Assembly (NCBI RefSeq): GCF_003018115.1
Contig: NZ_CP027457.1
From: Escherichia coli
GTDB lineage: Bacteria; Pseudomonadota; Gammaproteobacteria; Enterobacterales; Enterobacteriaceae
DNA length: 64,000 nt
Reading direction: 5' to 3' (one strand)
Position numbers and translations under genes: made by a program. Shown here piece by piece: positions 1 through 41,613 of the stretch. Positions within the stretch are counted from its first letter, which is position 1, and each line of letters starts with the position of its first letter. A model generated the notes under the pieces. The model was not told the origin of the DNA. It searched no databases and worked only from the letters and a program-made list of their open reading frames with translations.

Positions 1-989
1 TCGCAGAGCACTTTATTCCGTTCCTCAACGACCATATCAAGCCATTACTGGTAGGCCGCGATGTGGATGCTTTCCTGCCGAATGCCCGTTTCTTCGACAA
101 ATTGCGTATTGACGGCAACTTGCTGCATACCGCCGTGCGCTACGGATTATCACAGGCGCTGCTTGATGCTACCGCGCTGGCAACCGGCCGTCTGAAAACT
201 GAAGTGGTCTGTGATGAATGGCAGTTGCCACGCGTGGCGGAATCCATTCCATTATTTGGTCAGAGCGGCGACGATCGATATATCGCCGTCGATAAGATGA
301 TCCTTAAGGGCATCGACGTGCTGCCCCATGCGCTGATTAATAACGTCGAAGAGAAGCTGGGCTTTAAAGGTGAAAAACTGCGCGAATATGTCCGCTGGTT
401 GTCGGATCGCATTCTAAGCAAGCGCACCAGCGCACGCTACCACCCTACCCTGCACATCGATGTATACGGCACTATCGGTCTGATCTTCGATATGGATCCG
501 CTTCGCTGTGCGCAATACATCGCCAGCCTGGAAAAAGAAGCGCAAGGCCTGCCGCTCTACATTGAAGGGCCGGTCGATGCCGGTAACAAGCCCGACCAAA
601 TTCGCCTGCTGACCGCGATTACCAAAGAGCTGACGCGCCTCGGTTCCGGCGTGAAAATTGTGGCCGATGAATGGTGTAACACCTACCAGGATATTGTTGA
701 TTTCACTGATGCCGCCAGTTGTCACATGGTGCAAATCAAAACCCCGGATCTGGGCAGTATTCACAACATCGTCGATGCGGTTCTTTACTGCAATAGCCAC
801 AGCATGGAAGCGTACCAGGGCGGCACCTGCAATGAAACTGATGTCAGTGCCCGCACCTGTGTCCACGTCGCCCTTGCCGCTCGCCCTATGCGTATGCTGG
901 TAAAACCAGGGATGGGCTTTGACGAAGGCCTCGATATCGTCTTCAACGAAATGAATCGTACTATCGCGCTGTTGCAGGCTAAGGATTAA
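1..989 (+). CDS. 3-methylaspartate ammonia-lyase (methylaspartase), C-terminal ~330 codons; 5' end lies outside the window
   Basis: Frame (phase from base 3) is open from the window edge to the stop at 987-989. Translation carries methylaspartase/enolase-superfamily signatures LPHALINNVEEKLG, HIDVYGTIG, ADEWCNT, HMVQIKTPDLG, GGTCNET, KPGMGxDEG, matching clostridial methylaspartase as I remember it. Confidence 0.85.
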   Translation, partial: AEHFIPFLNDHIKPLLVGRDVDAFLPNARFFDKLRIDGNLLHTAVRYGLSQALLDATALATGRLKTEVVCDEWQLPRVAESIPLFGQSGDDRYIAVDKMILKGIDVLPHALINNVEEKLGFKGEKLREYVRWLSDRILSKRTSARYHPTLHIDVYGTIGLIFDMDPLRCAQYIASLEKEAQGLPLYIEGPVDAGNKPDQIRLLTAITKELTRLGSGVKIVADEWCNTYQDIVDFTDAASCHMVQIKTPDLGSIHNIVDAVLYCNSHSMEAYQGGTCNETDVSARTCVHVALAARPMRMLVKPGMGFDEGLDIVFNEMNRTIALLQAKD

Positions 990-992
990 CAA

Positions 993-2363
993 ATGGCTCG
1001 TTCTTTTAAAGTCTTATCGCCAACGGCAATCCTCGGGTATGGATTCCCGGAAGAGAGCTTCCGCAAAGCGATGGCAGAATCGCCCGATCTGATCGCCGTT
1101 GATGCAGGCTCTTCCGATCCAGGCCCCCACTACCTCGGGGCAGGCAAACCGTTTACCGATCGCGCAGGGGTCAAGCGCGATCTGCGCTATATGATCACCG
1201 CAGGCGTGCAAAATAATATACCGGTGGTGATCGGAACGGCTGGCGGTTCTGGTGCCGCACCACACCTGGAGTGGTGCCGAGAAATAATTCATGAGATTGC
1301 CCTGGAAGAGCAACTCGCGTTCTCCATGGCGTTGATCCCGGCAGACGTTGACAAAGCCATCGTCCACCAGGCGCTGGATAACGGCAAAATCACGGCGCTG
1401 GATTTTGTCCCGCCGTTAACCCACGACGCGATTGACGAAAGTACGTATATCGTTGCGCAAATGGGCATCGAACCCTTCCAGCGGGCGCTGAAAGAAGGCG
1501 CGCAAGTGGTGCTGGGCGGGCGCGCTTACGACCCGGCCTGCTTTGCTGCGCTACCGATCATGCAAGGCTTTGATGAAGGTCTGGCGCTGCATTGTGGGAA
1601 AATCCTTGAATGCGCGGCAATCGCCGCAACGCCCGGCTCAGGCTCTGACTGTGCGATGGGCATCATTGATGACAACGGCTTTACGCTGAAGACATTTAAT
1701 CCGAAGCGTAAATTTACCGAAACGTCAGCAGCTGCACACACACTGTATGAGAAATCCGATCCCTACTTCCTGCCAGGACCTGGCGGCGTGTTGAACCTGA
1801 AAGGCTGCACATTTAAAGCAGTCAATGACGGCGAAGTCTACGTCAGCGGTTCTAAGCATGAAGAAACGCCGTATGCCCTGAAACTGGAAGGTGCACGACG
1901 GGTGGGCTTCCGCTGTCTGACCATCGCCGGAACGCGCGACCCGATTATGATCGCCGGGATCGATAAAATCATCGATGAAGTCAAAACCAGCGTTTCGCGT
2001 AACCTGTCGCTCGACGATGACAGCATTCGCATCAATTTCCACCTGTACGGCAAAAACGGGGTGATGGGAGACCATGAACCGATGCAAACTGCCGGGCATG
2101 AGCTGGGGATTGTCCTTGATGTAGTTGCACCGACCCAGGAAATTGCCAATAGCGTTTGCTCGCTGGTGCGCTCTACCATGCTGCACTACGGCTATGAAAA
2201 CCGCATCGCTACCGCAGGCAATCTGGCGTTCCCGTTCTCCCCTTCTGATATCCAGGGCGGGCCGGTATACGAATTTTCCATATATCACCTGATTGAAGCC
2301 AACGACGCTCTGCGTTTTGATTTCCATATTGAACAGGTGACGCCAGAAGGAGTTCAGGCATGA
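993..2363 (+). CDS. hypothetical protein, 456 aa; tentatively DUF1446/AtuA-like
   Basis: ATG at 993 with AAGGA about 7 nt upstream, starting 4 nt after the methylaspartase stop. Long ORF with normal composition. Family assignment is from memory only and unverified. Confidence 0.6.
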   Translation: MARSFKVLSPTAILGYGFPEESFRKAMAESPDLIAVDAGSSDPGPHYLGAGKPFTDRAGVKRDLRYMITAGVQNNIPVVIGTAGGSGAAPHLEWCREIIHEIALEEQLAFSMALIPADVDKAIVHQALDNGKITALDFVPPLTHDAIDESTYIVAQMGIEPFQRALKEGAQVVLGGRAYDPACFAALPIMQGFDEGLALHCGKILECAAIAATPGSGSDCAMGIIDDNGFTLKTFNPKRKFTETSAAAHTLYEKSDPYFLPGPGGVLNLKGCTFKAVNDGEVYVSGSKHEETPYALKLEGARRVGFRCLTIAGTRDPIMIAGIDKIIDEVKTSVSRNLSLDDDSIRINFHLYGKNGVMGDHEPMQTAGHELGIVLDVVAPTQEIANSVCSLVRSTMLHYGYENRIATAGNLAFPFSPSDIQGGPVYEFSIYHLIEANDALRFDFHIEQVTPEGVQA

Positions 2364-2677
2364 AACAGTCAATTGTCTCACTGGCGCAAGTCATTCGTTC
2401 GAAAAATGCCGGACCTTACGAACTGGTTTTAGATATTTTATTTAAAACGAAAGAAAACTATGAGCGAGTTAAATCATCAGGGCAATTAACCCCAGAACTG
2501 ATTGCGCGCTTATATCATGTTGAACCTGACTTTATTCATCGTATTGTCTGGTTTGATCCTTCTAACGCAGTAAAAATCGTCATGCCACGAGATATTATCT
2601 CCGGGAATGTAGGTGACAATGATGTCTATGGTGCACAGCAACATGCACCTTTATTAAATATGAGTTTCGATTTGTAA
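2360..2677 (+). CDS. small hypothetical protein, 105 aa; tentatively the DUF4387-like partner of the preceding ORF
   Basis: Start overlaps the upstream stop (ATGA, 2360-2363), indicating translational coupling. Family assignment unverified. Confidence 0.55.
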   Translation: MKQSIVSLAQVIRSKNAGPYELVLDILFKTKENYERVKSSGQLTPELIARLYHVEPDFIHRIVWFDPSNAVKIVMPRDIISGNVGDNDVYGAQQHAPLLNMSFDL

Positions 2678-2760
2678 AAATCCGAATACTTTTAGCCAAC
2701 TGACATCCCGTCACTTATTGCAGTTCAACACTTCAGCTATTTGTAAGGTTGTAATAGCAG

Positions 2761-2792
2761 GTAGATGCCTGAATCTCTATTCAGGCATCTAC
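2761..2792. promoter_or_regulatory. perfect palindrome (14-bp arms, 4-nt loop) GTAGATGCCTGAAT-CTCT-ATTCAGGCATCTAC; possible intra-operon attenuator, RNA processing site or protein-binding site
   Basis: Read directly from the sequence, between the small ORF stop (2677) and the transporter start (2838). No clean T-run follows it. Confidence 0.4.
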
Positions 2793-2837
2793 TTCTCCTG
2801 ATTCTGATTTATCGCCGTGCACCTGATGGAGGAAAAA

Positions 2838-4118
2838 ATGAAGAAAATAAGTTTAACCACGATGATTCTTTTGGCGCTGGTACTTGGAATGATTATCGGC
2901 GTAGTGCTCAATAACACTGCTTCACCGGAAACCGCAAAACTCTATGCGCAAGAAATATCGATATTCACGACGATTTTCTTACGACTGATAAAAATGATTA
3001 TCGCTCCGTTAGTGGTCTCTACCCTGGTGGTAGGTATTGCTAAAATGGGCGATGCCAAAGCCCTTGGTCGTATTTTTTCTAAAACACTTTTTTTATTTAT
3101 TTGCGCCTCATTGCTGTCAATTGCCTTAGGCTTGATAACGGTAAATTTCTTCATGCCAGGCACAGGAATTAATTTTGTTGCACACGGTGCCGAAACCACA
3201 GGAGTGGTCGCGTCAGAACCCTTTACGCTAAAAGTATTTATTTCGCATGCTTTCCCCACCAGCATTGTCGATGCCATGGCGCACAATGAAATTTTGCAAA
3301 TCGTGGTGTTCTCAATTTTCCTCGGCTGTAGCCTGACGGCGATTGGCGAGAAAGGCAGCGCCATCGTTCACGCCTTAGATTCGCTGGCACATGCCATGTT
3401 AAAGCTCACTGGCTACGTCATGCTCTTCGCTCCCCTGACCGTATTCGCCGCTATTTCAGCATTGATTGCTGAACGAGGACTGGCCGTTATGGTGAGCGCC
3501 GGGATCTTTATGGGTGAATTTTATTTCACCATGTTATTACTTTGGGTGCTGCTTATCGGTCTGGCCATCGTTTATGTCGGCCCCTGCATCAGACGCCTGA
3601 CCCGCGCCCTTTCGGAACCCGCCCTGCTGGCATTTACCACATCCAGTTCTGAAGCGGCTTTTCCGGGAACGCTTGAAAAACTGGAGCAATTTGGCGTTTC
3701 CCCCAAAATTGCCAGCTTTGTCTTACCCATTGGCTACTCATTTAATCTCGTTGGATCAATGGCCTACTGCTCCTTCGCCACAGTTTTCATCGCCCAGGCC
3801 TGCAATATCCATTTATCCATCGGTGAACAAATCACCATGCTGTTGATCCTGATGTTGACCTCGAAAGGAATGGCTGGCGTACCACGCGCCTCAATGGTGG
3901 TTATCGCCGCCACGCTCAACCAGTTCAATATTCCGGAAGCGGGGCTGATCTTGCTGATGGGCGTTGATCCGTTCCTTGATATGGGGCGTTCCGCGACAAA
4001 CGTCATGAGCAACGCAATGGGCGCTGCGATGGTGAGTCGGTGGGAAGGCGAACATTTCGGCGAGGGCTGTCGGGGTAAAGCATTAAAACCCAATGAATCG
4101 AACGTTGCTCTGCCCTGA
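2838..4118 (+). CDS. dicarboxylate/amino acid:cation symporter (DAACS family, DctA/GltP-like), 426 aa
   Basis: ATG at 2838 preceded by GGAGG. Highly hydrophobic multi-helix protein with DAACS-like segments; the longer ORF from 2817 is probably an upstream extension. Confidence 0.8.
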   Translation: MKKISLTTMILLALVLGMIIGVVLNNTASPETAKLYAQEISIFTTIFLRLIKMIIAPLVVSTLVVGIAKMGDAKALGRIFSKTLFLFICASLLSIALGLITVNFFMPGTGINFVAHGAETTGVVASEPFTLKVFISHAFPTSIVDAMAHNEILQIVVFSIFLGCSLTAIGEKGSAIVHALDSLAHAMLKLTGYVMLFAPLTVFAAISALIAERGLAVMVSAGIFMGEFYFTMLLLWVLLIGLAIVYVGPCIRRLTRALSEPALLAFTTSSSEAAFPGTLEKLEQFGVSPKIASFVLPIGYSFNLVGSMAYCSFATVFIAQACNIHLSIGEQITMLLILMLTSKGMAGVPRASMVVIAATLNQFNIPEAGLILLMGVDPFLDMGRSATNVMSNAMGAAMVSRWEGEHFGEGCRGKALKPNESNVALP

Positions 4119-4225
4119 GGGGGATCTTAAGCAATCAGAAGCCAATGACTACGCATTTTTATAAGCCGGATCATGAAGTTAGACGGCAATTAAGTAACAC
4201 TAACGTTTAAGGTGAAAAGTGAAAT

Positions 4226-5878
4226 ATGTCCAAACCATTTATCTGGCAAGAACCGTTTCTACAAAATAAAGACGGTACAGAATATACATTAATTAGCGAT
4301 CAGCATATTACAGTAACGGAATTAGACGGCGAAGAAGTGATAAAAATCGCTCCTGAAGCATTAACGCTGCTTGCCCGGCAGGCATTTTATGAAGCCTCTT
4401 TTTTCTTACGTTCCGCTCATTTGCAACAGGTCGCCAGCATTCTTAACGATCAGCAGGCCAGTAGTAATGATAAATACGTTGCGTTGCAGTTATTACGTAA
4501 TGCTGAAGTCTCAGCAAAAGGGGTATTACCCAACTGTCAGGATACCGGCACCGCAACTATTGTTGCCAGTAAAGGGCAACAGATATGGACCGGAGGTAAC
4601 GACGCTGAAGCCTTAAGCAAAGGCATTTACAGTACTTTCCAGGAAAATAATCTGCGCTTTTCACAAAATGCGCCGCTGGATATGTATACCGAAGTCAATA
4701 CGCAAACCAATCTCCCGGCGCAGATTGATATCAGCGCTGTCGCTGGTGATGAGTACCATTTTCTCTGTGTTAATAAAGGGGGCGGCTCCGCCAATAAAGC
4801 CGCGCTTTATCAGGAAACCAAATCCTTATTGCAACCAGAAAAACTGACCGCATTTTTAATCGAAAAAATGAAATCGCTGGGCACCGCTGCCTGCCCGCCT
4901 TACCACATCGCCTTTGTCGTCGGAGGGCTTTCAGCCGATCAAACCTTAAAAGTTGCCAAGCTGGCCTCAACGAAATATTACGACAATTTGCCCACCAGCG
5001 GAAACGAGCAGGGACAAGCATTCCGTGATATTGAGCTGGAAAAAGCGTTGCTCGAGGCCAGTCAGCAATTTGGTATTGGTGCACAATTTGGGGGGAAATA
5101 TTTCGCTCATGATATTCGCGTCATGCGTCTGCCGCGTCACGGTGGCTCTTGCCCGATAGCTATGGCGCTCTCCTGTTCTGCCGATCGCAATATCAAAGCA
5201 AAAATTAACAAACACGGTATCTGGCTGGAAAAACTCGAACACAATCCGGGGCAATATATTCCAGCCTCATTGCGGGAAGAAAATCACGCGCAACATGTAC
5301 AACTGGATCTAAACCGTCCGTTGCGTGACGTGATGCTGGATCTCGCCAGATTACCGGTAGGCACCCGCGTGTCGTTAAGTGGTCCCATCGTAGTGGCGCG
5401 CGATATCGCCCACGCCAAAATAAAAGCGCGGCTGGATAGCGGCGAATCGATGCCGGAGTACCTGAAGCATCATATTGTCTATTACGCTGGCCCGGCGAAA
5501 ACACCGGAGAACATGGCCTGCGGTTCACTGGGTCCAACCACGGGCGGTCGAATGGACGGTTATATCGATACCTTCCAGGCGGCTGGCGGCAGTCTGGTGA
5601 TGTTATCGAAAGGTAACCGCAGCCAGCAGGTCACCGATGCCTGTCACAAACATGGCGGCTTCAATCTGGGAAGTATTGGCGGTGCTGCTGCGTTACTGGC
5701 GCAAGAATATGTCAAAAGTCTGCGTTGCCTGGAATATCCGGAGCTGGGTATGGAAGCGGTGTGGATGATGGAAGTGGAAAATCTGCCCGCATTCATCCTG
5801 GTAGATGATAAAGGCAATAATTTCTTTAGTCAGTTTGAGCAGCAACACCGCTGCGCCAGTTGCCCTGCGGGACATTAA
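4226..5878 (+). CDS. fumD: class I (Fe-S) fumarate hydratase paralog, 550 aa; candidate mesaconase (FumD-like)
   Basis: Near full-length similarity to E. coli FumA/FumB as I remember them (WQEPF, GVLPxCQDTGTA, [41 protein letters not shown], GSLGPTTxGRMD). The symbol is from my memory of a described O157:H7 mesaconase and is not verified. Confidence 0.75.
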
Positions 5879-5887
5879 GGAAAATGA

Positions 5888-6490
5888 ATGGAAGCGCGAA
5901 TTTCAACTGAACGGCATGTGCAGCGCCAACAGAAATTGAAGGAACAGGTCGATACGCGCGTCGCGGCGGCGATAGAGAAAAAAGGGATCTTGATTGTTTT
6001 CACCGGCAACGGCAAAGGGAAATCCACTGCCGCGTTTGGTACTGTGACGCGCGCGGTGGGTCATGGCAAAACGGTGGGGGTTGCGCAGTACATCAAGGGG
6101 CAATGGGACAACGGCGAATACAACCTTCTCCAGCCGCTGGGGGTTGAGTTTCATATTATGGGAACCGGTTTTACCTGGGAGACACAGAACCGGCAAGCGG
6201 ATATCGACGCGGCGAAAGAGGTCTGGTCGGAAAGCAAACGGATGCTGGCTGACAAGCGTTACGACTTAGTGGTGCTTGATGAGCTGACCTATATGCTGGC
6301 TTACCATTATCTGGATACCGAAGAAGTGATCGCTTCTCTGCAAAACCGCCCGGCACAACAAAGTGTCATTGTCACCGGACGCGGTTGCCACAGTCAGATA
6401 TTAAAAATGGCAGATACGGTCAGCGAAATCCGCCCCGTCAAACATGCTTTTGATAACGGCATACAGGCCCAGCCGGGTATCGACTGGTAA
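5888..6490 (+). CDS. ATP:cob(I)alamin adenosyltransferase, BtuR/CobA paralog, 200 aa
   Basis: P-loop VFTGNGKGKSTAAFG plus GFTWETQNR and LDELTYM motifs align along the whole length with E. coli BtuR as remembered. RBS AAGG upstream of the ATG at 5888. Confidence 0.85.
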   Translation: MEARISTERHVQRQQKLKEQVDTRVAAAIEKKGILIVFTGNGKGKSTAAFGTVTRAVGHGKTVGVAQYIKGQWDNGEYNLLQPLGVEFHIMGTGFTWETQNRQADIDAAKEVWSESKRMLADKRYDLVVLDELTYMLAYHYLDTEEVIASLQNRPAQQSVIVTGRGCHSQILKMADTVSEIRPVKHAFDNGIQAQPGIDW

Positions 6491-6493
6491 TAA

Positions 6494-6520
6494 CTGCGCC
6501 TGGCATCCTGCCAGGCGCAG
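6494..6520. terminator. hairpin CTGCGCCTGGCA-TCC-TGCCAGGCGCAG between convergent genes
   Basis: Perfect 12-bp inverted repeat lying between the adenosyltransferase stop (6490) and the LysR stop (6524), followed by GTTTTA. Confidence 0.5.
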
Positions 6521-6523
6521 GTT

Positions 6524-7429
6524 TTACATCTCCTGCGGTACGACCGATTTCGCCAGCAACCATTCACGAAATTGCTGCAAGTGCGGTGAGTCAGACTTCT
6601 CTTCCTGCCACGTCATAATAAAACGATTACCGGTACGAATAGGCACATCACAGGGGATCACCATATCGCCACTATCCAAATCATGTTGAATAGCGAACCG
6701 TGGTAACAGCGCCACGCCGAGATTAGAGCGCACGGCGGCAATCAGCATTGAAAGCAAATCGAAACGTGGTCCGTTGTTGACCAGCGGACTGCTAACGCCA
6801 GATAAAGCAAACCACTCTTCCCAGCCAGTAATACGGGTGCTTTGATGCAGAAGTGGTAACTCAGTAAGCAGTTCTGCCACTGACAGTTTTTGATCGGACA
6901 TTGCAAGCAAACTGCCGCTGCATACCGGCAAAATCTCCTCATCAAAGAGATATTCTACTTCCGCCCAGGGCGCGCAAAAATTTTCGCGCATAATGACAGC
7001 ATCGTACTCCCGATTAAGAAAATCGCCGTTATTAGCTAAAGAATGAATATTAACAATAATATCGGGATGTAACTTTGTGAATTCATGTAAATTTGGGATC
7101 AACCAGTGGGTACTAAAAGTAGGATTAACGGCAAGTTCAATAACCTGAACCGTAGGCTGCCAGGTCATAATGGTATTGGTATCGCGTTCCAGCTTATTTA
7201 ATGTTTCTTTTACTATCCCCAGGTAATACTTCCCTGCATCATTAAGAAAAATGCGTTTTTTAGAGTGTGAAAATAACGGAGTACGTAAAAATTCCTCCAG
7301 CGCACTTACTTGTCTGAATACTGCACTTTGGGTTAACGCTAACTCCTCTGCCGCTCTGGTATAACTTTCATGACGTGCGACGACCTCAAAAGTCACCAGC
7401 AGTTCCGTTTTAGGTATTTTCCCTCGCAT
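6524..7429 (-). CDS. LysR-family transcriptional regulator, 301 aa
   Basis: N-terminal HTH region (LTQSAVFRQVSALEEFL) and the usual ~300 aa length. Convergent with the pathway operon. Confidence 0.85.
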   Translation of the reverse strand: MRGKIPKTELLVTFEVVARHESYTRAAEELALTQSAVFRQVSALEEFLRTPLFSHSKKRIFLNDAGKYYLGIVKETLNKLERDTNTIMTWQPTVQVIELAVNPTFSTHWLIPNLHEFTKLHPDIIVNIHSLANNGDFLNREYDAVIMRENFCAPWAEVEYLFDEEILPVCSGSLLAMSDQKLSVAELLTELPLLHQSTRITGWEEWFALSGVSSPLVNNGPRFDLLSMLIAAVRSNLGVALLPRFAIQHDLDSGDMVIPCDVPIRTGNRFIMTWQEEKSDSPHLQQFREWLLAKSVVPQEM

Positions 7430-8194
7430 AATGCCTTCCGTGAAAAAAATAACAATTCAAAAAATTATTTTATAAAAAATAGTAGTGCTAATGAATATCA
7501 TAATTCAAATAAACAAACCAGTCAGCTATATGTCCAACCAGAAAAATAAAGTGACAATAATCCTAAAACAGAAATTTCACCTCAGTTATCCGCATGCAAT
7601 ACTTTAAAGCTATTATTGCAAGAATATTATTCATATACATGAATATACTCTAAATAACTCGAGTTGCAGGAAGGCAACAAATAATGAATTTCCAGAAACT
7701 TACATAAGTCAGTGGCCAGGGTGAGCGAACATCGATGCAGAACATGCAACTTGAAGTATGACAAGTATACAATGATAAATTTAGATACCCTATGTTATAT
7801 ATTATCTATGTCTGGTTAAATTGAATGAGTCATGGCCTTAAAAGACTTCGCAAAAGATAATTTCTCTTTAACAATAAGCCAGATTTACCACTTGTAAAAA
7901 TTGCTATCGCCACATACACTACGCGCGTTTTCTTTCCCTTTTGCTGGCTGCTGACCGGAAAGACAAAATTACCCTCGCAATACAGGGGGTTTTTTAACGT
8001 CTATATTTCAGGACAGCGTTATTCATCATCTTTCAAGGCTTGATAAAGCCTTTCTGCGCAAAGGGATCCAACTTTCCCGCGCCAACAATATTGTTTCATT
8101 ATCTCGTCCATCTGGTGCCAGTGCCCGCGTACTGCTGCCGGACGAACTACCGCTGGAAGAAAAAGCAGTAACACAACTGCTTGATTTTGCAGAA

Positions 8195-9418
8195 GTGAAG
8201 CTACCAGACCACCCAGGTTATGTGCGCCAGACGTGCGCGACGCCAGATTTTCACCCCGGCAATGGCGTCCCCGTTGGCGCGGTGGTGGCCTCAACGCCGG
8301 ATTTAGTCATTCCCGCCGCCATCGGCACCGATATTTCTTGCGGCATGCGGCTGCTAACGACTGGATTAACACTTGAGCAAGCCGAAGCGAATAAAGACGT
8401 CATCACTCAGCGGTTAACGCAAGTGCTACTGCAAAATGAGCGCGATGTTCCGTTATCCGCACAAGCGTTCACTGCGCTTTTTGATGGCGGACCGGCAGAT
8501 TACGTATCGACCTTGCCATCAGCAGGTCTCTGGACACGCACGAATATCCCCCGAATGGTACAAGAGATTGACCGCTGCATTGGGCTTAACGAGCATAACA
8601 GTCATTCGCGTTATGCCCCACCCGCCCTACTGGCAACGGACCGCGCATTACTCCGCGATCCTTGTCTGGGTACGCCAGGTTCAGGTAATCATTTTATTGA
8701 ACTTCAGGTGGTTGATAGCGTGGTCGATCGCCATGTGGCCTGGCAACAAGGGCTGAAAACGGGCGATATCGTGGTGATGATCCACAGTGGATCGCGAGAT
8801 GTCGGCTTTTACGTCGGACGACGCTGGATGGACCGTGCCCGTGCTGAATGGCCCGCCGGGCATAAACACCCACAAAGCGGGTTATATGGTCTGGCTGGTG
8901 GACTGGCGGAGGAATATCTACAAGCGATGGGAATGGCGGCGCGTTACGCATGGTTAAATCGCGTGACCATTGCGGAAATGGTTCGCGTATGTTTTGCCGA
9001 TTTATTTCATCAGGATGATTCACATCTGGTGGTGGATGTGCCGCATAACATCATCCTTCGCGAACATGAAATGAATATTCATCGCAAAGGTGCAACACCG
9101 GCACACGCGGGCGCTCTGGCATTAATCCCCGGTTCAATGGGCGATTATACGTGGCTTGCGGTAGGTTGCGGCAACTCGGAGTGGTTGTGGTCATGCAGTC
9201 ATGGAGCAGGACGCAGCCAGCGTCGGCAGGCGATGCGCTCACGCGCGACTGAAGAGTCAACGCTGCCGTGGCAATGCGTCACATTGCGTGAAGAACGACG
9301 TCTTGAAGAAGCGCCAGCTGCTTATAAAGATATTGCTCCGGTTATCGAAGCCCAACAAGAAGCCGGATTGATTCAGCCTGCGGTCAGATTACGACCGTGG
9401 TTAACGTTTAAGGGGTAA
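8195..9418 (+). CDS. RtcB-family RNA ligase homolog, 407 aa from the first canonical start (GTG at 8195)
   Basis: RtcB motifs DISCGM, GSGNHFIE, HSGSRDVG, HRKGAT, SCSHGAGR. The frame stays open for 80 codons upstream (7955-8194) with no ATG, GTG or TTG, so the true start is uncertain. Confidence 0.8.
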   Translation: MKLPDHPGYVRQTCATPDFHPGNGVPVGAVVASTPDLVIPAAIGTDISCGMRLLTTGLTLEQAEANKDVITQRLTQVLLQNERDVPLSAQAFTALFDGGPADYVSTLPSAGLWTRTNIPRMVQEIDRCIGLNEHNSHSRYAPPALLATDRALLRDPCLGTPGSGNHFIELQVVDSVVDRHVAWQQGLKTGDIVVMIHSGSRDVGFYVGRRWMDRARAEWPAGHKHPQSGLYGLAGGLAEEYLQAMGMAARYAWLNRVTIAEMVRVCFADLFHQDDSHLVVDVPHNIILREHEMNIHRKGATPAHAGALALIPGSMGDYTWLAVGCGNSEWLWSCSHGAGRSQRRQAMRSRATEESTLPWQCVTLREERRLEEAPAAYKDIAPVIEAQQEAGLIQPAVRLRPWLTFKG

Positions 9419-9433
9419 CTGAAATGATAAATG

Positions 9434-9526
9434 GCCTGCGGTTCTCACGCAGGTCAAATCTGGTATCTGCGTAAGCTAACAAACTTGTTTATCAACAATT
9501 TCAGGCCATCCGAAGATGGCCTGAAA
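9434..9526. terminator. two hairpins (CCTGCGGTTCTCACGCAGG and TTCAGGCCATCCGAAGATGGCCTGAA) between convergent rtcB-like and mngB
   Basis: Inverted repeats read directly in the 145-bp gap between convergent 3' ends. Confidence 0.45.
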
Positions 9527-9562
9527 TTGTTGCCCCCCTTAGATACACTTTAAGCGCAATAA

Positions 9563-12196
9563 TCAGCCAAGGCGGTAGCTAAATGTCCGTGACTGCCCCG
9601 GTAAAAATGCCCCCAGTTCCTTTAAATTATCTCTTTCCGCTGTGCTGATGCTTTCATCCATCATCGTTTGCGTACATGAAATCACCTCACGACTGAACGC
9701 AACAGTTGCCTCACAGGTTGTCGATTCTGCCGGATTAAACAGTCGCAATACCACTTCTTGCCGGTCCTCCGCTTTTTTAAGAGCGCTAATCAGGCATCCC
9801 ACAGGTGGCATTTTCAGCAAGCTATAGCTTTCCGGCACATTGAATCCGGCTTTATTTAACTTCATCGCATCCCATGGGATTTTGTTGTAACACTGTACTG
9901 GCGTCAGCCATGCACGCGCCTGCTGGGCTACACCGGCGGTCGCAGGCGTACCTGTATAACTTAATAAGCTCAGACGGCAGCTAAAGGAGCCACGTAATTG
10001 TGAATCGGGCACCGGCATTTTTATGCCTGAAGGACGTCCAGGCCTTAAAAGCAGATCTTCTTTGCCCAGTAAGCCCACGCCACGCAGCAACGTAATGGCA
10101 AAGGTTTTCTTCTCTTCACCGATGACTTCAAATTCACGTAGCCCTTCGCTAAAGACAGCCATGCCGTTACGCCCTTCCTGTAAGGCTGCATAGTTGAGCA
10201 TATTCCATACCGGAACCGGCGCTTCTTTCCAGCCTTCTTGCTGCCAGTTGTTCATTGCACTGTCGTTCACGGGGCGCGTTAGCGAACCAAACTGGGTATC
10301 TGCCAGAACACTATCGGTGTTAAAAGATGTAGGGATCAGGACGCGAAGGCGATGATCGTCAGCCTGGTTATCAAGGTTGATATCCACATCAATGCGCCTG
10401 CTGTTATGACTAAGAGTGACAACCAACTCCACCCCTACTCTACCCGTGGATTGCCGGGCGCTGCGTTCTTGCAGATTACGCGGCACCGCCATTTCATAGC
10501 GGATAACAGCCCTGCTCTGCCAGGCCTCATGAATAATCTCGCATTGCGGTTTCGCATTCGCCGAAGTAATTACCCACTCTTCTTTTGCGGGTGAATAGTC
10601 ATATTCATCACCATCATCAGAGCTTTCTTCAATTTGCAATACCCGGTCATAGCGCACACCGCTGTCTTTATCTACCAGTTGTAGCGTTCCATCCTCATTG
10701 AGCGCAATTTGCCAGAAAGCATTTTCCAGTATCCCTTCAGCGTCACTTTTTGCCGCAATCACGTTGCCAGGCTGATTCGCTTCGATATAAAGCGTTCGAT
10801 AGCCCATAGAAGGGACAATCTGGTTGATCTGAATATCAAACTCCATAAAGGGATCGTAATTACCGTAATGAACGATTTGCCGATCGATTAAGCCTGGATC
10901 GATCTCACGGGCATGGCGAATAAAATACGGTACAGGCTGACCGCGATCGTCTCGTAGATTAAACTGGCTGGCGCGCAGCCGCACAGTGGTGTTAATAACT
11001 TCTTCACGCGGCCAGGGCATCAGGTTAAACAGCACAAGTTTGTCGGCATCACTCTGTGGCATGTTATCGGCAATTTTGCGCATGTAGAAACGCAGCAGAT
11101 TATCCGCCATGTCTTCAGCCAGTTCGAAGCGGGCGACGATTTCGCGATGAACTTTGTCACTACAGCAGCAGCCGATGCTGTCGTGGGCATGATTTTTTAA
11201 GATCTCTTTCCACATTTTCTCCAGCAAGCCGTGGTGGTATTCAAAACCCAACGTCCAGGCCAGCGTTGCCAGCGGTTCCAGCAGATTAACAATCTTATTT
11301 TCAATACGTGCGTGGGCAACTTTGATATCCATGCGCGTGGAACCGATGGTGCGATGCACGCGCATATATTTGCCATCAATAAATTCACCTTTCAGGGTCG
11401 CCAGACTTTCACGCTGCGCTTCAATCTGCTCGAATACCTCTTCAAAGCGGCTCATCACAAACTTTCGTTGAGGATAAATTTCGCGAAGTTTCTCCATTAC
11501 TTCGAAGATATTTTGCTGCAATGGCATCTGGTCATGACCATTCGGCAGCAAAATCTCTTTGGTTACAGACGCTTTTTCCAGCACGTCAAAATAACTGTCG
11601 AGGCGTTTGCGTAATCCGTTTTCGTCCGCAGGTAAGTACTTACCGATGGCATAACCCAACGGCAGCACCTGCGCCGTCACTTCGCTACCGTCACTGCTTT
11701 GCCACAAAAACTCGTTTTTATCAGTACCGTGGCGCTCAGAACATCCACGCCAGAACATGGTGCGGGTAATGCCAAATCCATTGTAGATATGCGGCAGTTG
11801 CCCGGACATGCCAAAGGAATCCGGTAAATAACCTATTTTCATCGGCTCGCCAAACGCGAGGCAGTCACGCATTCCGTACATCAGATTACGGACGATGGAT
11901 TCCGCAGAAACAATCGTGGTATCGGTCTGGGTATACCAGGGGCCGATAATCAACTTGCCGGCTTCTACCAGTTTCTTCACGCGGTCTTTGTTTTCCGGTT
12001 TCACCGCGAAATAATCTTCGAGGATCGCCGTTTGCCCGTCGAGTACGTAATATTTGTATTCGTTGTCCTGTTCCAGTCGGCACAGGATCTCTTCCATATT
12101 ATTGACCAGCAGAATGCGTGACTCTTCGGTGGTGAAATACCACTCCCGATCCCAGTGCATATGCGGGGTGATGTGAACGCGAGATACCGCTTTCAT
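9563..12196 (-). CDS. mngB: alpha-mannosidase (mannosylglycerate hydrolase), 877 aa
   Basis: Length and sequence fit the family 38 glycosyl hydrolase MngB; position next to mngA. Confidence 0.9.
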
Positions 12197-12213
12197 CGTC
12201 GTTTCCTTTTTGT

Positions 12214-14190
12214 TTATGGCATTACGCCATCAGTCAGATAGTTGCCATGCTTAACCGCGTGACGCCGCCAGATAAGGAGAATTGCAGTCGAGATTGCAGC
12301 CCCCACCAATGCCGCACCAAACCAGCCAATTGCCGCCATAACACCGCCCGCGCCATTATCATGAAGTAAAAAGAGCGAGAAAATGCCGGCACCGGGTGTC
12401 GAAAGGCCGATATTCATCGCGCCGACAATAGCGCCCGTTACCATAGAGCCCAGCACAAACGAACCAATAACCCGCAGCGGATCTTCAATCGCCATCGGGA
12501 TCGCCCCTTCGGTAATACCTGCCAGCCCTAACAGCCAGGTGGATTTTCCGGTCTCAATTTCAAACTCTTTAAACAGGCGCGGTGCGAGCATCGTGGAAGC
12601 GGTTACGGTAAATGCCGAAACCATTTTGACGGAGGCGAAAATGGCATACGGGCCATAAACGCCGTTCGCCATTGCGCCCAGGCAGAATGCATAAGCGGCT
12701 TTGTTCACTGGCCCTCCAAGGTCAAAGGAACACATAAAACCGAGAATGGCACCCAGCAACAGCGCGTTACTTCCTGACAGACCGTTCAGCCAGGCGGTAA
12801 GCGAGTTATTGATCCAGGCGACAGGTTCCCCCACCACAAACAGCATCAGACTGCCCGCTCCCAATGTACCGAGCACCGGGTAGAGATAAAAAGTCAGGAA
12901 TCCATTGAATTTACTGCTAAGACGCAAGTGATTTTTCACCCAGCGCATCAGATAACCGGCTATCAATCCGCCAACGACCGCGCCGAGAAACCCGGAACCG
13001 ATCATGTTGGCGGCAAGTCCAGCCGCAAAGCCTGGCGCTAACGCCGGTTTATCTGCCAGTGAATAGGCGGTATAGGCCGCGAGCACCGGCACCATCAAAA
13101 TCCCGAGCATCCCGCCGCCCAGCTTGCGGTACATCCACAGCCAGGAGTTTTCTTCATTAAACAGATCTTGTAGCCCGAAGATTTGCGACAGTAATACCGC
13201 GACCGCCAGCACCGTGCCCCCCGCGACAATCAACGGTACGGCAAAAGAGATCCCGCTCAACAGTGCCTGTTTCAGCTCCGTTTTGACACTTTTCACCGGT
13301 TGCGTATCTTGCTGTACGATACGCGTCTCATCGCTACGCTTGAGGGTAAGCGCTTGTTGAATCAAAGCTTCTGCATGGCGAATCGGCTCGGCAACAGGCA
13401 CCGAAAGCGCGGGAATGCCGTTAAAACGCTCACTCTCCTTGATGGCGACTTCAGCCGCAAAAATACAGGCAGTTGCACTATTGAGTTGATCCGCCGTTAA
13501 ACGCCCTTCAATGCCGTTAGCACCTTGCTTTTCAACGTAGACATTCACGCCGAGTTTGCGTCCGGCTTTTTCCAGATACTCCGCAGCCATGTAGGTGTGA
13601 GCAATACCCGCCGGGCAGGCCGTTACGCAGACAATAGTTGGCGCGTTGGAAAAAGAGGCAGAAGGTTGCGTGCCTCCCTTGTCATCCAGCGCCGAGAGCA
13701 ATTCATCAGGCGTCGTCGCCGACTGTATACGCGCCCGAATCTCATCATCCGCCAGGCGCGTGGTCAGCGCTGTCAGCAGTTGCATATGCGTAGTACCCGC
13801 TTCATTGGGGGGAATCGCCAGCAACACCACTAAATCAACCGCTTCCGGGCCATCAACGCCTTCCCACTGAAGCGGCTCGCTGAGTGTGGCGACCGCAAAC
13901 GCCGCTTCTTTTACCGCAGCAGTTTTGCCATGCGGCACAGCCAACCCTTCACCTAAGGCGGTCGGGCCAAGGCTTTCACGGCGATACACTTCTTCCAGAA
14001 ATTGCTCAGTACTGGAAATTTTCCCCAGAGCAGCAAGACGTTGAGTCAACGCGTGGATGGCCTCTTCACGGCTGGTAAAGCGCGCATTCAGACACAACGC
14101 ATCGCGGTGGGTCAGAGTCGTCAGATTCATCATGATCCTCACTTGATCGTTTTTATAGTCGCGCCAGTGTGCCCGATAAAACAATACCAT
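12214..14190 (-). CDS. mngA: PTS 2-O-alpha-mannosyl-D-glycerate-specific EIIABC component, 658 aa
   Basis: N-terminal EIIA-like region, then EIIB and a hydrophobic EIIC domain; synteny with mngR and mngB. Confidence 0.9.
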
Positions 14191-14299
14191 TATGTGATCA
14201 ATTTCACTTGATTGAAATTATTTGTATTTTATTTGTATTATTTACAGGATGAGTTTATCGGGCATAATGGCTAAATTCGTATTAATGAGATGCTAAATC

Positions 14300-15022
14300 A
14301 TGGGACGGAAACCCTTATACCGACAGATTGCTGATCGCATTCGTGAGCAAATTGCGCGTGGCGAGCTTAAACCTGGCGATGCGTTACCCACTGAATCAGC
14401 GCTACAAACAGAGTTTGGCGTCAGCCGGGTTACGGTGCGCCAGGCTTTGCGCCAGTTAGTTGAACAGCAGATCCTCGAAAGTATTCAGGGCAGCGGGACT
14501 TACGTAAAAGAAGAGCGAGTCAATTACGATATTTTTCAGTTAACCAGTTTTGATGAAAAACTGACGGACCGTCACGTCGATACACACAGTGAAGTTCTGA
14601 TATTCGAAGTGATTCCGGCTGACGATTTTCTTCAGCAACAGCTACAAATCACCCCGCAGGATCGTGTGTGGCATGTGAAGCGCGTGCGCTATCGCAAGCA
14701 AAAGCCAATGGCGCTGGAAGAAACCTGGATGCCGCTTGCGTTGTTCCCGGATCTCACCTGGCAGGTCATGGAAAATTCGAAATATCACTTTATCGAAGAA
14801 GTGAAGAAAATGGTTATCGATCGTAGCGAACAGGAAATCATTCCTCTGATGCCAACCGAAGAGATGAGCCGTCTGCTTAATATCAGCCAGACAAAGCCGA
14901 TTCTTGAAAAAGTATCGCGTGGATATTTAGTTGATGGTCGGGTGTTTGAATATAGCCGCAACGCTTTTAATACCGATGACTATAAATTTACCCTGATAGC
15001 GCAGCGAAAATCATCGCGATAA
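14300..15022 (+). CDS. mngR: GntR/HutC-family repressor, 240 aa
   Basis: N-terminal GntR HTH (LPTESALQTEFGVSRVTVRQAL); divergent from mngA. Confidence 0.9.
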   Translation: MGRKPLYRQIADRIREQIARGELKPGDALPTESALQTEFGVSRVTVRQALRQLVEQQILESIQGSGTYVKEERVNYDIFQLTSFDEKLTDRHVDTHSEVLIFEVIPADDFLQQQLQITPQDRVWHVKRVRYRKQKPMALEETWMPLALFPDLTWQVMENSKYHFIEEVKKMVIDRSEQEIIPLMPTEEMSRLLNISQTKPILEKVSRGYLVDGRVFEYSRNAFNTDDYKFTLIAQRKSSR

Positions 15023-15024
15023 GC

Positions 15025-15125
15025 ACAAAAAAGGCCATCATACGATGGCCAACCATGTCGAAACCGACAGCCCTTCGCCATTCCTGTAGAGGGAAGCGGC
15101 GAGGGCTATTTCTTATTACAGATAT
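15025..15125 (-). ncRNA. sdhX: SdhX-type sRNA from the sucD 3' UTR, ending at a Rho-independent terminator (GGCCATCGTATGATGGCC + T-run on the minus strand)
   Basis: Hairpin and T-run seen directly downstream of the sucD stop. Assignment rests on established knowledge that the sdh-suc operon 3' UTR encodes SdhX; exact ends not determined. Confidence 0.5.
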
Positions 15126-15995
15126 TTATTTCAGAACAGTTTTCAGTGCTTCACCGATATCCGCCAGGCTGCGAACGGTTTTCACGCCTGCGGCTTCCAG
15201 AGCAGCGAATTTCTCATCCGCAGTCCCTTTACCACCGGCAATGATGGCACCCGCGTGGCCCATACGTTTGCCTTTCGGCGCAGTCACACCAGCGATGTAA
15301 CCCACAACTGGCTTGGTAACGTGCTCTTTGATGTACGCAGCCGCTTCTTCTTCAGCGCTACCGCCGATCTCACCGATCATCACGATCGCTTCGGTCTGCG
15401 GATCTTTTTCGAACATTTCGAGAATGTCGATAAAGTTAGAGCCAGGGATCGGGTCACCGCCGATACCGACACAGGTCGACTGACCGAAACCGTAATCTGT
15501 GGTCTGTTTAACCGCTTCATAGGTCAGTGTACCGGAACGGGAAACGATACCCACTTTACCCGGTTTGTGAATGTGACCCGGTTGGATACCAATTTTGCAT
15601 TCACCCGGGGTGATAACGCCCGGGCAGTTCGGGCCGATCATACGAACGCCGGCTTCATCCAGTTTCACTTTCACAGTCAGCATATCCAGCGTCGGGATGC
15701 CTTCAGTGATGGTGATAATCAGTTTGATGCCTGCGTCGATGGCTTCCAGAATGGAGTCTTTGCAGAACGGTGCTGGCACATAGATAACAGAAGCGGTAGC
15801 GCCAGTGGCAGCAACAGCTTCACGCACGGTGTTGAACACCGGCAGGCCGAGGTGGGTAGTACCGCCTTTACCTGGAGTTACACCGCCAACCATTTTGGTG
15901 CCGTAGGCAATGGCCTGTTCAGAGTGGAAAGTCCCCTGGCTACCAGTAAAGCCCTGGCAGATAACCTTGGTGTTTTTATCAATTAAAATGGACAT
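15126..15995 (-). CDS. sucD: succinyl-CoA synthetase alpha subunit, 289 aa
   Basis: Near-exact recall of E. coli SucD ([28 protein letters not shown]...). Confidence 0.95.
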
Positions 15996-17161
15996 TATTT
16001 CCCCTCCACTGCGGCAACAACCTGCTGAGCTGCATCCGTCAGACCTTTTGCTGCAATAATATTCAGGCCGCTGTCAGCCAGTTTCTTCGCGCCGAGTTCG
16101 GCGTTGTTACCTTCCAGACGTACCACGACCGGTACGTTAACACCCACTTCCGCTACCGCGCCGATGATACCGTCAGCGATCAGGTCGCAACGAACGATAC
16201 CGCCGAAGATGTTAACCAGAACGGCTTTCACTTTGTCGTCAGAGAGGATGATTTTGAACGCTTCGGTTACACGTTCTTTGGTTGCGCCGCCGCCAACGTC
16301 AAGGAAGTTAGCTGGTTCGCCGCCGTGCAGTTTAACGATGTCCATCGTACCCATCGCCAGACCTGCGCCGTTAACCATACAACCGATGTTACCGTCCAGC
16401 GCAACGTAGTTCAGTTCCCACTGTGCAGCCTGTGCTTCACGTGGATCTTCCTGCGACTGGTCACGCATTTCGCGCAGATCAGGCTGGCGGAACAGTGCGT
16501 TGCCATCAGCGCCCAGTTTGCCGTCGAGGCAAATCAGATCGCCCTGTTTGGTAATGACCAGCGGGTTGATTTCGATCAGCGCCAGGTCACGCTCCAGGAA
16601 AATGGTCGCCAGGCCCATGAAGATTTTGGTGAACTGCTGAACCAGTTTACCTTCCAGACCCAGTTTGAACGCCAGCTCGCGTCCCTGATACGGCATCGGG
16701 CCTGTCAGCGGATCAAGCGCAACTTTATGGATCAGGTGCGGAGTTTCTTCCGCCACTTTTTCGATTTCCACGCCGCCTTCGGTGGAGGCCATAAAGACCA
16801 CACGACGGGAACTACGGTCTACAACGGCACCGAGATACAGCTCTTTAGCGATATCGGTCGCTGCTTCAACCAGAATCTGGTTAACCGGTTGGCCATTGGC
16901 ATCTGTTTGATACGTTACCAGACGCTTGCCGAGCCAGTTTTCTGCAAAAGCACGGATGTCTTCTTTGCTGTTTACAACTTTCACACCGCCCGCTTTACCG
17001 CGGCCACCAGCGTGAACCTGACATTTCACTACCCACGGACCGGCACCGATTTTTGAAGCGGCTTCTTCTGCTTCGCGCGGAGTAGTACAGGCATAACCCA
17101 CCGGTGCTGGTAAGCCATAGCGGGCAAACAGTTGTTTTGCCTGATATTCATGTAAGTTCAT
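15995..17161 (-). CDS. sucC: succinyl-CoA synthetase beta subunit, 388 aa
   Basis: [19 protein letters not shown]-terminus; 1-nt stop/start overlap with sucD. Confidence 0.95.
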
Positions 17162-17239
17162 GTGTTCTGTCCATCCTTCAGTAATCGTTATCTTTTAAAC
17201 CGTAGACCGAATATTTCGTATCGCTTCCGGGTATTGTCG

Positions 17240-17415
17240 GTCACCCGTAGGCCTGATAAGACGTGTAAGCGTCGCATCTGGCATCGCTTGTCGGATGCGG
17301 CGCGAGCGCCTTATCCGACCTACATCGGTGCTTCCCGTAGGCCTGATAAGACGCGTTAAGCGTCGCATCAGGCTTCAATTGCCGGAGAAAGCAATAATGT
17401 CTTATCCGGTCTACA
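17240..17415. repeat. cluster of REP (repetitive extragenic palindromic) units in the sucB-sucC intergenic region
   Basis: Repeated GCCTGATAAGACG...CGTCGCATC(A/T)GGC and GCCGGATGCGGCG...CCTTATCCG palindromic units. Confidence 0.7.
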
Positions 17416-17436
17416 GTGCAGGTGAAACTTAAACTA

Positions 17437-18654
17437 CTACACGTCCAGCAGCAGACGCGTCGGATCTTCCAGCAACTCTTTGATCGTTACGAGGAAGCCC
17501 ACGGATTCGCGACCATCGATCAGACGGTGATCGTAGGACAGCGCCAGGTACATCATCGGCAGGATCTCAACCTGACCATTCACCGCCATCGGACGATCTT
17601 TGATAGCGTGCATACCCAGAATTGCGCTCTGCGGCGGGTTGATGATAGGCGTAGACATCAGGGAACCGAACACACCACCGTTGGTGATGGTGAAGTTACC
17701 ACCGGTCAGATCTTCAACCGTCAGCTTGCCGTCACGGCCTTTAACTGCCAGCTCTTTGATTTTCTTCTCGATGTCTGCCATGCCGAGGGTATCGACATCA
17801 CGCAGTACCGGCGTCACCAGGCCGCGCGGCGTAGAAACCGCCATGCTGACGTCGAAATAGTTGTGGTAAACCACGTCATCGCCGTCGATAGAAGCATTCA
17901 CTTCCGGGTAACGTTTCAGGGCTTCAACCACCGCTTTCACGTAGAAGGACATAAAGCCCAGACGGATGCCGTGGCGTTTTTCAAACGCTTCACCGTACTG
18001 CTTACGCAGATCCATAATCGGCTTCATGTTGACTTCGTTGAACGTGGTCAGCATGGCGGTGGAGTTTTTCGCTTCCAGCAGACGCTCTGCCACACGCTTA
18101 CGCAGGCGAGTCATCGGGACACGTTTTTCACTACGTGCAGCCAGAGCCGGTTGCGCCGCCGGAGCAGCCGCTGCCGGTGCAGACTCTTTCGCCGGGGATT
18201 TCGCCAGATGTTTTTCCACATCTTCACGGGTCAGACGACCACCCACACCGGTGCCTTTAATGGCGCTGGCGTCGAGGTTATGTTCAGCCAGCAAGCGACG
18301 GATCGCCGGGCTTAACGCATCGTTGTTTTGCTCTTCCAGAGACGCCTGCTGGCGTTGCGCCGGAGTGGACGCTTTCTCTTCAGATTTGGCGCTGGTTTCT
18401 TTACCGGCGCTGTTGCCTTCACGCAGGCGACCAAGGATCTGACGAGACGTTACCGTTGTACCTTCATCTTCCAGAACCGCATCCAGAATGCCGTCTGCTG
18501 ATGCCGGTACTTCCAGTACCACTTTGTCAGTTTCGATTTCTACCAGCACTTCATCACGTACGACTGCGTCGCCGGGTTTTTTATGCCAGGTTGCGACGGT
18601 GGCATCGGCTACGGATTCAGGCAGGTCAGGGACCAGAATATCTACGCTACTCAT
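17437..18654 (-). CDS. sucB: 2-oxoglutarate dehydrogenase E2 (dihydrolipoyl succinyltransferase), 405 aa
   Basis: Lipoyl domain at the N-terminus, Ala/Pro-rich linker, catalytic domain with the DHRLIDG motif. Confidence 0.95.
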
Positions 18655-27050: not shown

Positions 27051-27381
27051 ATATACCTAAACACAAAAAATTGTAAAAATAAAATCCACTATCGGACATT
27101 CATATATTCTAAAAAAAAATATATCGGTATAAATTATAAACAAATCGATGATTTTTAATCATGTATCTTCCTCTCAGTTACATGAATAAACCACCAAATA
27201 TAGCGCACCCCTATAATTTCCAATACTTTATTCATCAAACATTTAATTCATACCATCAATTAATTACTTTTACATTTAATAAAATTAATAATATTTTTAA
27301 GAAAAACTAAAAACATTCGACAATCAAATAAGATATTCTTGCACCGATATACTTTTTTCTTTTCTGTTAAAGGACTCCGTT

Positions 27382-27948
27382 ATGTTTAAAGGACAAAAAA
27401 CATTGGCCGCACTGGCCGTATCTCTGTTGTTCACTGCACCTGTTTATGCAGCTGATGAAGGATCCGGTGCAATTCATTTTAAAGGTGAGGTTATTGAAGC
27501 GCCTTGTGAAATACATCAGGATGATATTGATAAAGAAGTTGAACTTGGTCAGGTGACCACCAGCCACATTAATCAGTCACATCACAGCGATGCCGTTGCT
27601 GTCGACCTGCGCTTAGTCAACTGTGATCTGGAAAACTCCAGCAACGGTTCCGGTGGCAAGATTTCTAAAGTTGCAGTCACCTTTGATAGCTCAGCGAAAA
27701 CCACCGGCGCAGATCCGATTCTCAACAACACCAGCACGGGTGAAGCCACCGGCGTCGGCGTGCGTTTATTGAATAAAGATCAAACCAATATCGTTTTAGG
27801 CACTGCTGCTCCAGACATCGACCTGGCACCGACCTCCAGCGAACAAACGCTGAATTTCTTTGCCTGGATGGAACAAATTGATCAGGCTACACCTGTAACG
27901 CCAGGTGCAGTTACAGCGAATGCTACCTACGTGCTGGATTATAAATAA
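27382..27948 (+). CDS. ybgD: fimbrial major subunit-like protein, 188 aa
   Basis: Signal peptide (LAALAVSLLFTAPVYA), fimbrial-subunit size, C-terminal YVLDYK-type strand; synteny. Confidence 0.8.
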   Translation: MFKGQKTLAALAVSLLFTAPVYAADEGSGAIHFKGEVIEAPCEIHQDDIDKEVELGQVTTSHINQSHHSDAVAVDLRLVNCDLENSSNGSGGKISKVAVTFDSSAKTTGADPILNNTSTGEATGVGVRLLNKDQTNIVLGTAAPDIDLAPTSSEQTLNFFAWMEQIDQATPVTPGAVTANATYVLDYK

Positions 27949-27998
27949 GTATTACTTTGGCGGCGCTATCGCCGCCTTTCTTCAAATATTTATCAGGT

Positions 27999-30458: not shown

Positions 30459-30472
30459 TTAAGGAAATGAAA

Positions 30473-32262: not shown

Positions 32263-32413
32263 CTTGCCATGATGCCCTTTGCAGCCGGAAAGGGCATCTC
32301 TTTCAGAAAATTGCTGATTTTCCCCTTTTCCTTGATTGCTGTTATTTTTTCCTGGCCCGGCTTTCTTTATGCTGTATCGATACACCAAAGAGAAAATAAT
32401 GAGGGAGCAAAGG

Positions 32414-34248: not shown

Positions 34249-34283
34249 GGTGATATCCTTTTTTCATTCTTTATTAATCGGGG

Positions 34284-36590: not shown

Positions 36591-36612
36591 TTTCGATCCC
36601 TCTGATTATTCG

Positions 36613-41355: not shown

Positions 41356-41613
41356 TCAATTATATTTTATAATTTGTTGTATTGCTGACTTTATATTGCC
41401 AATGACATCCTCATCATTAAATTCATTTAATATATTTTTTAGAATAGGATGTAGTTTAATATCACCTAAAATACCTGCCGAAATAATCACTTCATCAAAA
41501 ATTATGTTTTTTTGCAGTTCATAAATTATAGCAGTTATAACACGATTATCTTTTCTTTCTGCCAGTCCGCTTATAGCTTCAATTCTGGCACAATCATTCT
41601 TATCTGTCAGCAT
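41356..41613 (-). pseudogene. 85-codon ORF with HEAT-like repeat character; possible remnant of a gene disrupted by the adjacent H-repeat element
   Basis: Starts 13 nt after the H-repeat ORF stop, in a different frame, with no convincing RBS. Repeat-like AISGLAE.../ILGDIKLHPILKNIL pattern. Weak call. Confidence 0.25.

Follow-up and report, generated by a model that had tools for sequence, protein, structure and literature searches.

FumD of Escherichia coli, an already characterized class I mesaconase/fumarase encoded in a methylaspartate-route gene cluster

The DNA analyzed here, referred to as the window, is a stretch of 64,000 nucleotides from an Escherichia coli chromosome (contig NZ_CP027457.1). 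Close to its beginning lies a cluster of genes on one strand, in which mal, an AtuA-family gene, a DUF4387 gene, a gene for a GltP-like transporter, fumD and cobO follow one another, and which is succeeded by a hairpin and a convergent gene for a LysR-family regulator (Table 1). The subject of this study, fumD, is the penultimate gene of the cluster. According to an ORF scan of the window, it starts with ATG, ends with TAA and encodes 550 amino acids. The original prediction had placed this gene in a methylaspartate setting, directly before a corrinoid adenosyltransferase gene, and the closer annotation agrees, with mal located upstream and cobO beginning 9 nt after the fumD stop codon, behind a spacer that contains the motif AAGGAA.

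Table 1. Features of the fumD cluster, with positions in the window
Feature	Position	Strand	Basis
mal (methylaspartate ammonia-lyase), 3' part; makes mesaconate	3..989	+	Pfam MAAL_N/MAAL_C; TIGR01502, 388 bits
AtuA-family gene, cmlA orthologue (citramalate lyase subunit A)	993..2363	+	Pfam AtuA; PDB 9ERQ/9EVF chain A
DUF4387 gene, cmlB orthologue (citramalate lyase subunit B)	2360..2677	+	Pfam DUF4387; PDB 9ERQ/9EVF chain B
GltP/DctA-like dicarboxylate/amino acid:cation symporter, presumed glutamate importer	2838..4118	+	Pfam SDF, 343 bits
fumD, class I (Fe-S) mesaconase/fumarase, 550 aa	4226..5878	+	ORF, Pfam, NCBIfam, ECs0757 match
cobO/cobA, ATP:corrinoid adenosyltransferase	5888..6490	+	Pfam CobA_CobO_BtuR, TIGR00708 and NF004637, all above cut-offs
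GC-rich hairpin, 12-bp stem, between the convergent cobO and LysR genes	6494..6520	.	consensus match only
LysR-family regulator gene, convergent with the operon, putative cluster regulator	6524..7429	-	Pfam HTH_1, LysR_substrate

The window begins inside mal, and the glutamate mutase genes lie outside it. What precedes it can be read from a closely related genome, that of the ETEC isolate L7_E1373 (NZ_LR882990.1), which matches window positions 1-17878 with 99.98% identity and no gaps and is collinear with the rest at 99.2%. In NZ_LR882990.1, glmS-glmL-glmE and a full-length mal are annotated directly upstream, between cydA and the part that is equivalent to the window. The start of the symporter gene at 2838 was also taken from the annotation of the collinear genome, the first in-frame GTG being at 2817. 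The symporter falls below the cut-offs of both the GltP and the DctA NCBIfam models, and the cobO product scores 246.6 bits against the TIGR00708 model, which has a cut-off of 167.75.

The genes of the cluster are probably co-transcribed, since they lie on one strand, are separated by short gaps or overlap, and since the 107-nt spacer ahead of fumD contains no consensus terminator or promoter. The consensus scan of this spacer (4119-4225) covered promoter-like and terminator-like sites on the + strand; promoter-like sites were overall fewer than expected from shuffled sequences, which makes the scan weak evidence either way. No other terminator-like site in the scan has a stem as long as that of the hairpin downstream of cobO, and it is likely that this hairpin marks the end of the operon. 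The LysR gene behind it is found in the equivalent position in E. coli O157:H7 Sakai, in Klebsiella huaxiensis and in Pseudescherichia vulneris.

The fumD product matches two Pfam families, Fumerase (PF05681) with residues 50-325 (E 7.5e-75) and Fumerase_C (PF05683) with residues 331-536 (E 1.4e-77). Its architecture is thus that of a single-chain class I fumarate hydratase of the [4Fe-4S] type, with both domains in one chain. Among the curated NCBIfam models, the equivalog model for the FumD lineage (NF011921; PRK15392) is matched from the first to the last of its 550 positions with 1277.7 bits, against a cut-off of 1060. The FumA model (NF011919) gives 922.7 bits, below its cut-off of 1105, and the FumB-type model (NF011920) gives 920.2 bits, below its cut-off of 1094. 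It had been stated originally that the protein resembles FumA and FumB over its whole length, and this holds, as 547 positions can be aligned with either protein of the K-12 strain, with 67.8% identity to FumA and 66.7% identity to FumB. FumA and FumB themselves share 90% identity. Scores under both curated cut-offs, together with an identity of about 67%, rule out that the gene is an allele of fumA or fumB.

The window protein is identical to ECs0757 of E. coli O157:H7 Sakai in 545 of 550 positions (99.1%), and the two proteins have equal length and align without gaps. ECs0757, also called ECATCC700728_0849, was cloned from the O157:H7 strain ATCC 700728, purified and given the name FumD by Kronen and Berg (PLoS One 2015; PMC4682846). 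This is the report of a FumD mesaconase in O157:H7 to which the original prediction had referred, and it concerns the same gene: the published forward and reverse cloning primers match window positions 4226-4247 and 5861-5878, respectively, with zero mismatches. Full length, gapless alignment with ECs0757 and an intact set of catalytic residues also rule out a pseudogene or a divergent allele. The ORF at 4226-5878 is already known as the characterized FumD of E. coli; both gene and enzymology have been in the literature since 2015, and hence neither is new. The name needs some care, since fumD of K-12 is another gene, which adjoins pykF, and FumD of the toxin literature is a fumonisin esterase. 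Given these other genes of the same name, it would be a mistake to transfer annotations merely on the strength of the name.

The original prediction had argued for mesaconate (2-methylfumarate) rather than fumarate as the substrate, to be judged by kinetics with both compounds. Such kinetics are available for the 99.1% identical ECs0757, and negligible mesaconase activity, which would have spoken against the idea, is not what they show. With mesaconate, Vmax is 292 U/mg, Km is 0.15 mM and kcat/Km is 2x10^6 M-1 s-1; with fumarate, the values are 671 U/mg, 0.9 mM and 7.5x10^5 M-1 s-1 (Kronen and Berg, 2015). Mesaconate is therefore preferred, but "rather than" is too strong, since the preference is only about 2.7-fold by kcat/Km and fumarate gives the higher Vmax. 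FumD is a promiscuous mesaconase/fumarase. (S,S)-tartrate, with a kcat/Km of 50 M-1 s-1, is a very poor substrate (Kronen and Berg, 2015). The measurements were made with fully anoxic handling, which was required for full activity, and the iron-sulfur cluster of ECs0757 was oxygen-labile, with activity regained in the presence of Fe2+ and a thiol (Kronen and Berg, 2015). In the same study, the efficiencies of FumA and FumB with mesaconate amounted to 4% and 19% of their own efficiencies with fumarate, and the Km of FumD for fumarate was found to be 4- to 10-fold above those of FumA and FumB. The other experiment that had been proposed, complementation of a fumA fumB fumC mutant by fumD, is the subject of no report that we found in the literature searched.

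The five substitutions that separate the window protein from ECs0757 are V243I, A274V, M300I, L371Q and S408P. At four of these five sites, FumA and FumB also differ from FumD, and none of the five is among the 13 positions that bind the cluster or line the active site. Because the substitutions miss all ligand and active-site positions, we infer that the window allele would have the same kinetics as published for ECs0757.

These 13 positions were assigned by comparison with the fumarate hydratase FH-2 of Leishmania major (LmFH-2; PDB 5L2R), which among solved structures is the closest in sequence (692 bits over residues 18-536, with a constant offset of 29). In the alignment, C104, C223 and C317 of FumD correspond to the [4Fe-4S] ligands Cys133, Cys252 and Cys346 of LmFH-2, and they are kept in 116 to 117 of the 117 aligned homologues. 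Ten further residues of LmFH-2 are given as substrate-binding or catalytic in a preprint (bioRxiv 10.1101/2022.09.03.506457). All of them are identical in FumD, namely Q105, D106, R144, G187 and H305 (Gln134, Asp135, Arg173, Gly216 and His334 in LmFH-2), and R392, T438, T439, R442 and K462 (Arg421, Thr467, Thr468, Arg471 and Lys491). All 13 positions are thus kept in the window protein, and they are near-invariant among the 117 aligned homologues.

Some positions do distinguish the FumD lineage. F138, N183, A193, G307 and G440 of FumD stand where FumA/FumB-type proteins and LmFH-2 have Y, A, Y, A and A. G307 lies two positions past His305, and G440 directly follows Thr438-Thr439. The five-position signature sets apart 96 of 113 FumD-like sequences; a few sequences are mixed, some of them on short metagenomic contigs. 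With these few mixed sequences, a clean specificity signature for FumD was not obtained. The five residues may be considered candidates for the accommodation of the methyl group of mesaconate, because the changes near the catalytic residues are mostly toward smaller or less polar residues.

To judge how common the gene is, we turned to complete E. coli genomes. fumD is found in 1121 of 5426 of them (20.7%), in 1122 matching places, all of which cover at least 80% of the gene with at least 95% identity. One of the 1122 places is on a plasmid and not on the chromosome. DNA similar to fumA/fumB is present in 5425 of the 5426 genomes, with a median of 2 places per genome, so that FumD is an extra class I paralog, just as had been predicted originally. 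According to Kronen and Berg (2015), 90.6% of O157:H7 strains have the cluster. Outside E. coli, a database search brings up a FumD clade with at least 80% identity in Citrobacter, Buttiauxella, Enterobacter, Klebsiella, the Salmonella subspecies salamae and diarizonae, and E. fergusonii. Pseudescherichia forms a group with 73-77% identity, and homologues with about 70% identity occur in Providencia and Hafnia.

Gene order is also kept beyond the species. In K. huaxiensis (85% FumD identity), the order is glmS-glmL-glmE-mal-AtuA-DUF4387-transporter-glutaminase-fumD-cobA, followed by the LysR gene. P. vulneris (76%) has the same order without glutaminase and cobA, and its cluster lies between cydA and sucD, as in E. 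coli. In Hafnia alvei (70%), a LysR gene lies upstream of fumD and cobA downstream, and glmSLE and cobalamin genes are close by. Conserved linkage of this kind supports a function tied to the pathway over a stray copy of a fumarase gene. The glutaminase gene between the transporter gene and fumD of K. huaxiensis is absent from the E. coli window; its insertion would allow the Klebsiella cluster to begin from glutamine.

The genes between mal and the transporter gene are of particular relevance for the fate of the FumD product. The product of the AtuA-family gene matches chain A of PDB 9ERQ/9EVF, deposited as "Citramalate lyase, subunit A (cmlA)", over the full length with 971 bits, and the product of the DUF4387 gene, which overlaps the AtuA-family gene by 4 nt, matches chain B, "Citramalate lyase, subunit B (cmlB)", over the full length with 193.5 bits. 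The two-subunit Cml of Raoultella planticola has been reported to split citramalate into pyruvate and acetate (bioRxiv 10.64898/2026.01.16.699985). The assignment as CmlAB follows the names given by the PDB depositors and this preprint on the Raoultella enzyme; a primary paper on CmlAB was not found in the literature searched. Kronen and Berg (2015) detected no activity that cleaves citramalate and did not settle what becomes of this compound. If the AtuA/DUF4387 pair is CmlAB, this gap in the 2015 paper would be closed, and the cluster would also encode the step after FumD, which updates the earlier picture. As the steps before FumD (Mal) and after it (CmlAB) would then both be encoded in the cluster, the mesaconase assignment is strengthened. 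In the collinear genome, the RefSeq product names are still AtuA-family and DUF4387 rather than citramalate lyase. Metabolic models of enterobacteria, both pathogenic and commensal, would benefit if fumD, cmlA and cmlB were annotated correctly.

Together, these data suggest a model in which the GltP-like carrier would import glutamate, and the adenosylcobalamin-dependent glutamate mutase GlmS/GlmE would convert it to (2S,3S)-3-methylaspartate. GlmL would reactivate the mutase, and CobO would adenosylate corrinoid to provide the adenosylcobalamin cofactor. Mal would then release ammonia from methylaspartate to give mesaconate, and FumD would add water to mesaconate to form (S)-citramalate. By analogy with LmFH-2, the unligated iron of the [4Fe-4S] cluster of FumD would serve as Lewis acid, while the group Thr438/Arg392/Arg442 would provide the base and Asp106/His305 the acid. 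Mesaconate hydration would accordingly be the role of FumD in vivo. We put the probability at about 0.9 that the ORF is fumD, encoding a third fumarate hydratase of class I that acts as an oxygen-sensitive [4Fe-4S] mesaconase in a complete methylaspartate-route cluster and is active on the fumarate/malate pair as well. A cluster for the B12-dependent catabolism of glutamate would then be present in about 21% of the complete E. coli genomes. A caveat concerns physiology, in that strain ATCC 700728 showed no expression of the cluster, no methylaspartate ammonia-lyase activity and no growth on glutamate (Kronen and Berg, 2015).

The lack of expression, enzyme activity and growth phenotype in ATCC 700728 is what one would expect if the cluster were a cryptic or decaying island acquired by horizontal transfer, with a FumD that works in vitro but contributes nothing to the physiology of the cell. 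The patchy distribution, with the cluster gene in about a fifth of the complete genomes, would fit this explanation as well. Moreover, E. coli has no de novo synthesis of cobalamin, so that the pathway depends on external corrinoid. However, all ORFs of the cluster in the window are intact, and they belong to the 17.9 kb that match a fully annotated cluster without gaps. The coverage and identity limits that hold for every one of the 1122 places in E. coli also argue against decay, as do catalytic residues that are invariant across orthologues and a gene order that is kept across genera. Intact ORFs, invariant catalytic residues and conserved gene order are as expected under purifying selection, and we consider a cryptic island unlikely.

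FumD could also serve mainly as a spare fumarase in vivo, for instance when certain anaerobic or iron conditions prevail, in which case its mesaconase activity would be an expression of the general promiscuity of class I enzymes and its place in the cluster would be incidental. The mesaconase activities of FumA and FumB, the higher Vmax of FumD with fumarate (Kronen and Berg, 2015) and the location of the cluster next to the TCA-cycle genes sucABCD could be taken as arguments in favor. Against this explanation stand a Km for fumarate that is higher than those of FumA and FumB, and a catalytic efficiency that favors mesaconate. Carriers of fumD already have fumA and fumB, and fumD is linked to glm-mal-cmlAB in four genera with identities of 70-85%. 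Nor are fumD and the rest of the cluster annotated at this locus in a strain that lacks the glm-mal genes, with co-localization described "in all these cases" (Kronen and Berg, 2015). On balance, a spare fumarase appears even less probable than a cryptic island. Finally, mesaconate might be a surrogate for another substituted C4 or C5 dicarboxylate, such as tartrate, as broad promiscuity is known from class I fumarases and from the tartrate dehydratases related to them (Kronen and Berg, 2015) and as FumD has weak, sub-threshold NCBIfam matches to models of tartrate dehydratase subunits. Since (S,S)-tartrate is turned over so poorly, and since the flanking genes encode enzymes that make mesaconate and consume citramalate, we regard a different true substrate as highly improbable. 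The reading of FumD as the mesaconase of the methylaspartate route is therefore the one that we prefer.

Within this reading, a more specific proposal can be made, which combines two ideas. The five lineage-specific replacements may set the shift toward mesaconate by making room for the C2 methyl group, and, with the AtuA/DUF4387 pair deposited as citramalate lyase, E. coli strains with fumD may run a complete fermentation of glutamate to pyruvate and acetate in the gut, dependent on external corrinoid. We offer the two ideas jointly as a tentative proposal, which may well turn out to be wrong.

It remains to compare the locus and the enzyme with known systems. In O157:H7, the neighbors of FumD (ECs0757) are like those in the window, with a transporter gene upstream and cobO and the LysR gene downstream, and the region near sucD and cydA is also alike. 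Window and Sakai strain differ between the LysR gene and sucD: these two abut each other in Sakai, whereas the window has an additional stretch (7448-15019) with an RtcB-family gene and mngB-mngA-mngR, all of which is missing from Sakai. The ORF of the RtcB-family gene spans 8195-9418; the near-identical genome annotates a start at the equivalent of position 8021, where the window has an Ile codon. Farther downstream, the ybg fimbrial operon region (27381-36830; subunit, usher and chaperone) is 87.5% identical to Sakai, compared to about 99% for its flanks, which points to a divergent fimbrial allele. For the region from about 41600 to 48650, the annotation of the collinear genome lists an ISEc1 transposase, an NTF2-fold immunity protein, ybfC and a 4.2-kb RHS core protein.

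FumA and FumB of K-12 share with FumD the single-chain build from two domains, the Fe-S ligands, the catalytic residues, the reaction chemistry and some mesaconase activity. They differ in genomic context and in preference, as FumA and FumB favor fumarate 5- to 25-fold, whereas the kcat/Km of FumD favors mesaconate. LmFH-2, a fumarase of eukaryotic origin, is extended at its N terminus and has the FumA-type residues at the five signature positions of FumD. The clostridial mesaconase MesAB has the pathway step and the class I fumarase superfamily in common with FumD, but it consists of two subunits and belongs to a separate branch of the tree, whereas FumD is one fused chain. The step that follows also differs, since clostridial clusters encode a citramalate lyase of the CitDEF type, where the E. 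coli cluster has the AtuA/DUF4387 pair. According to Kronen and Berg (2015), mesaconases arose several times independently.
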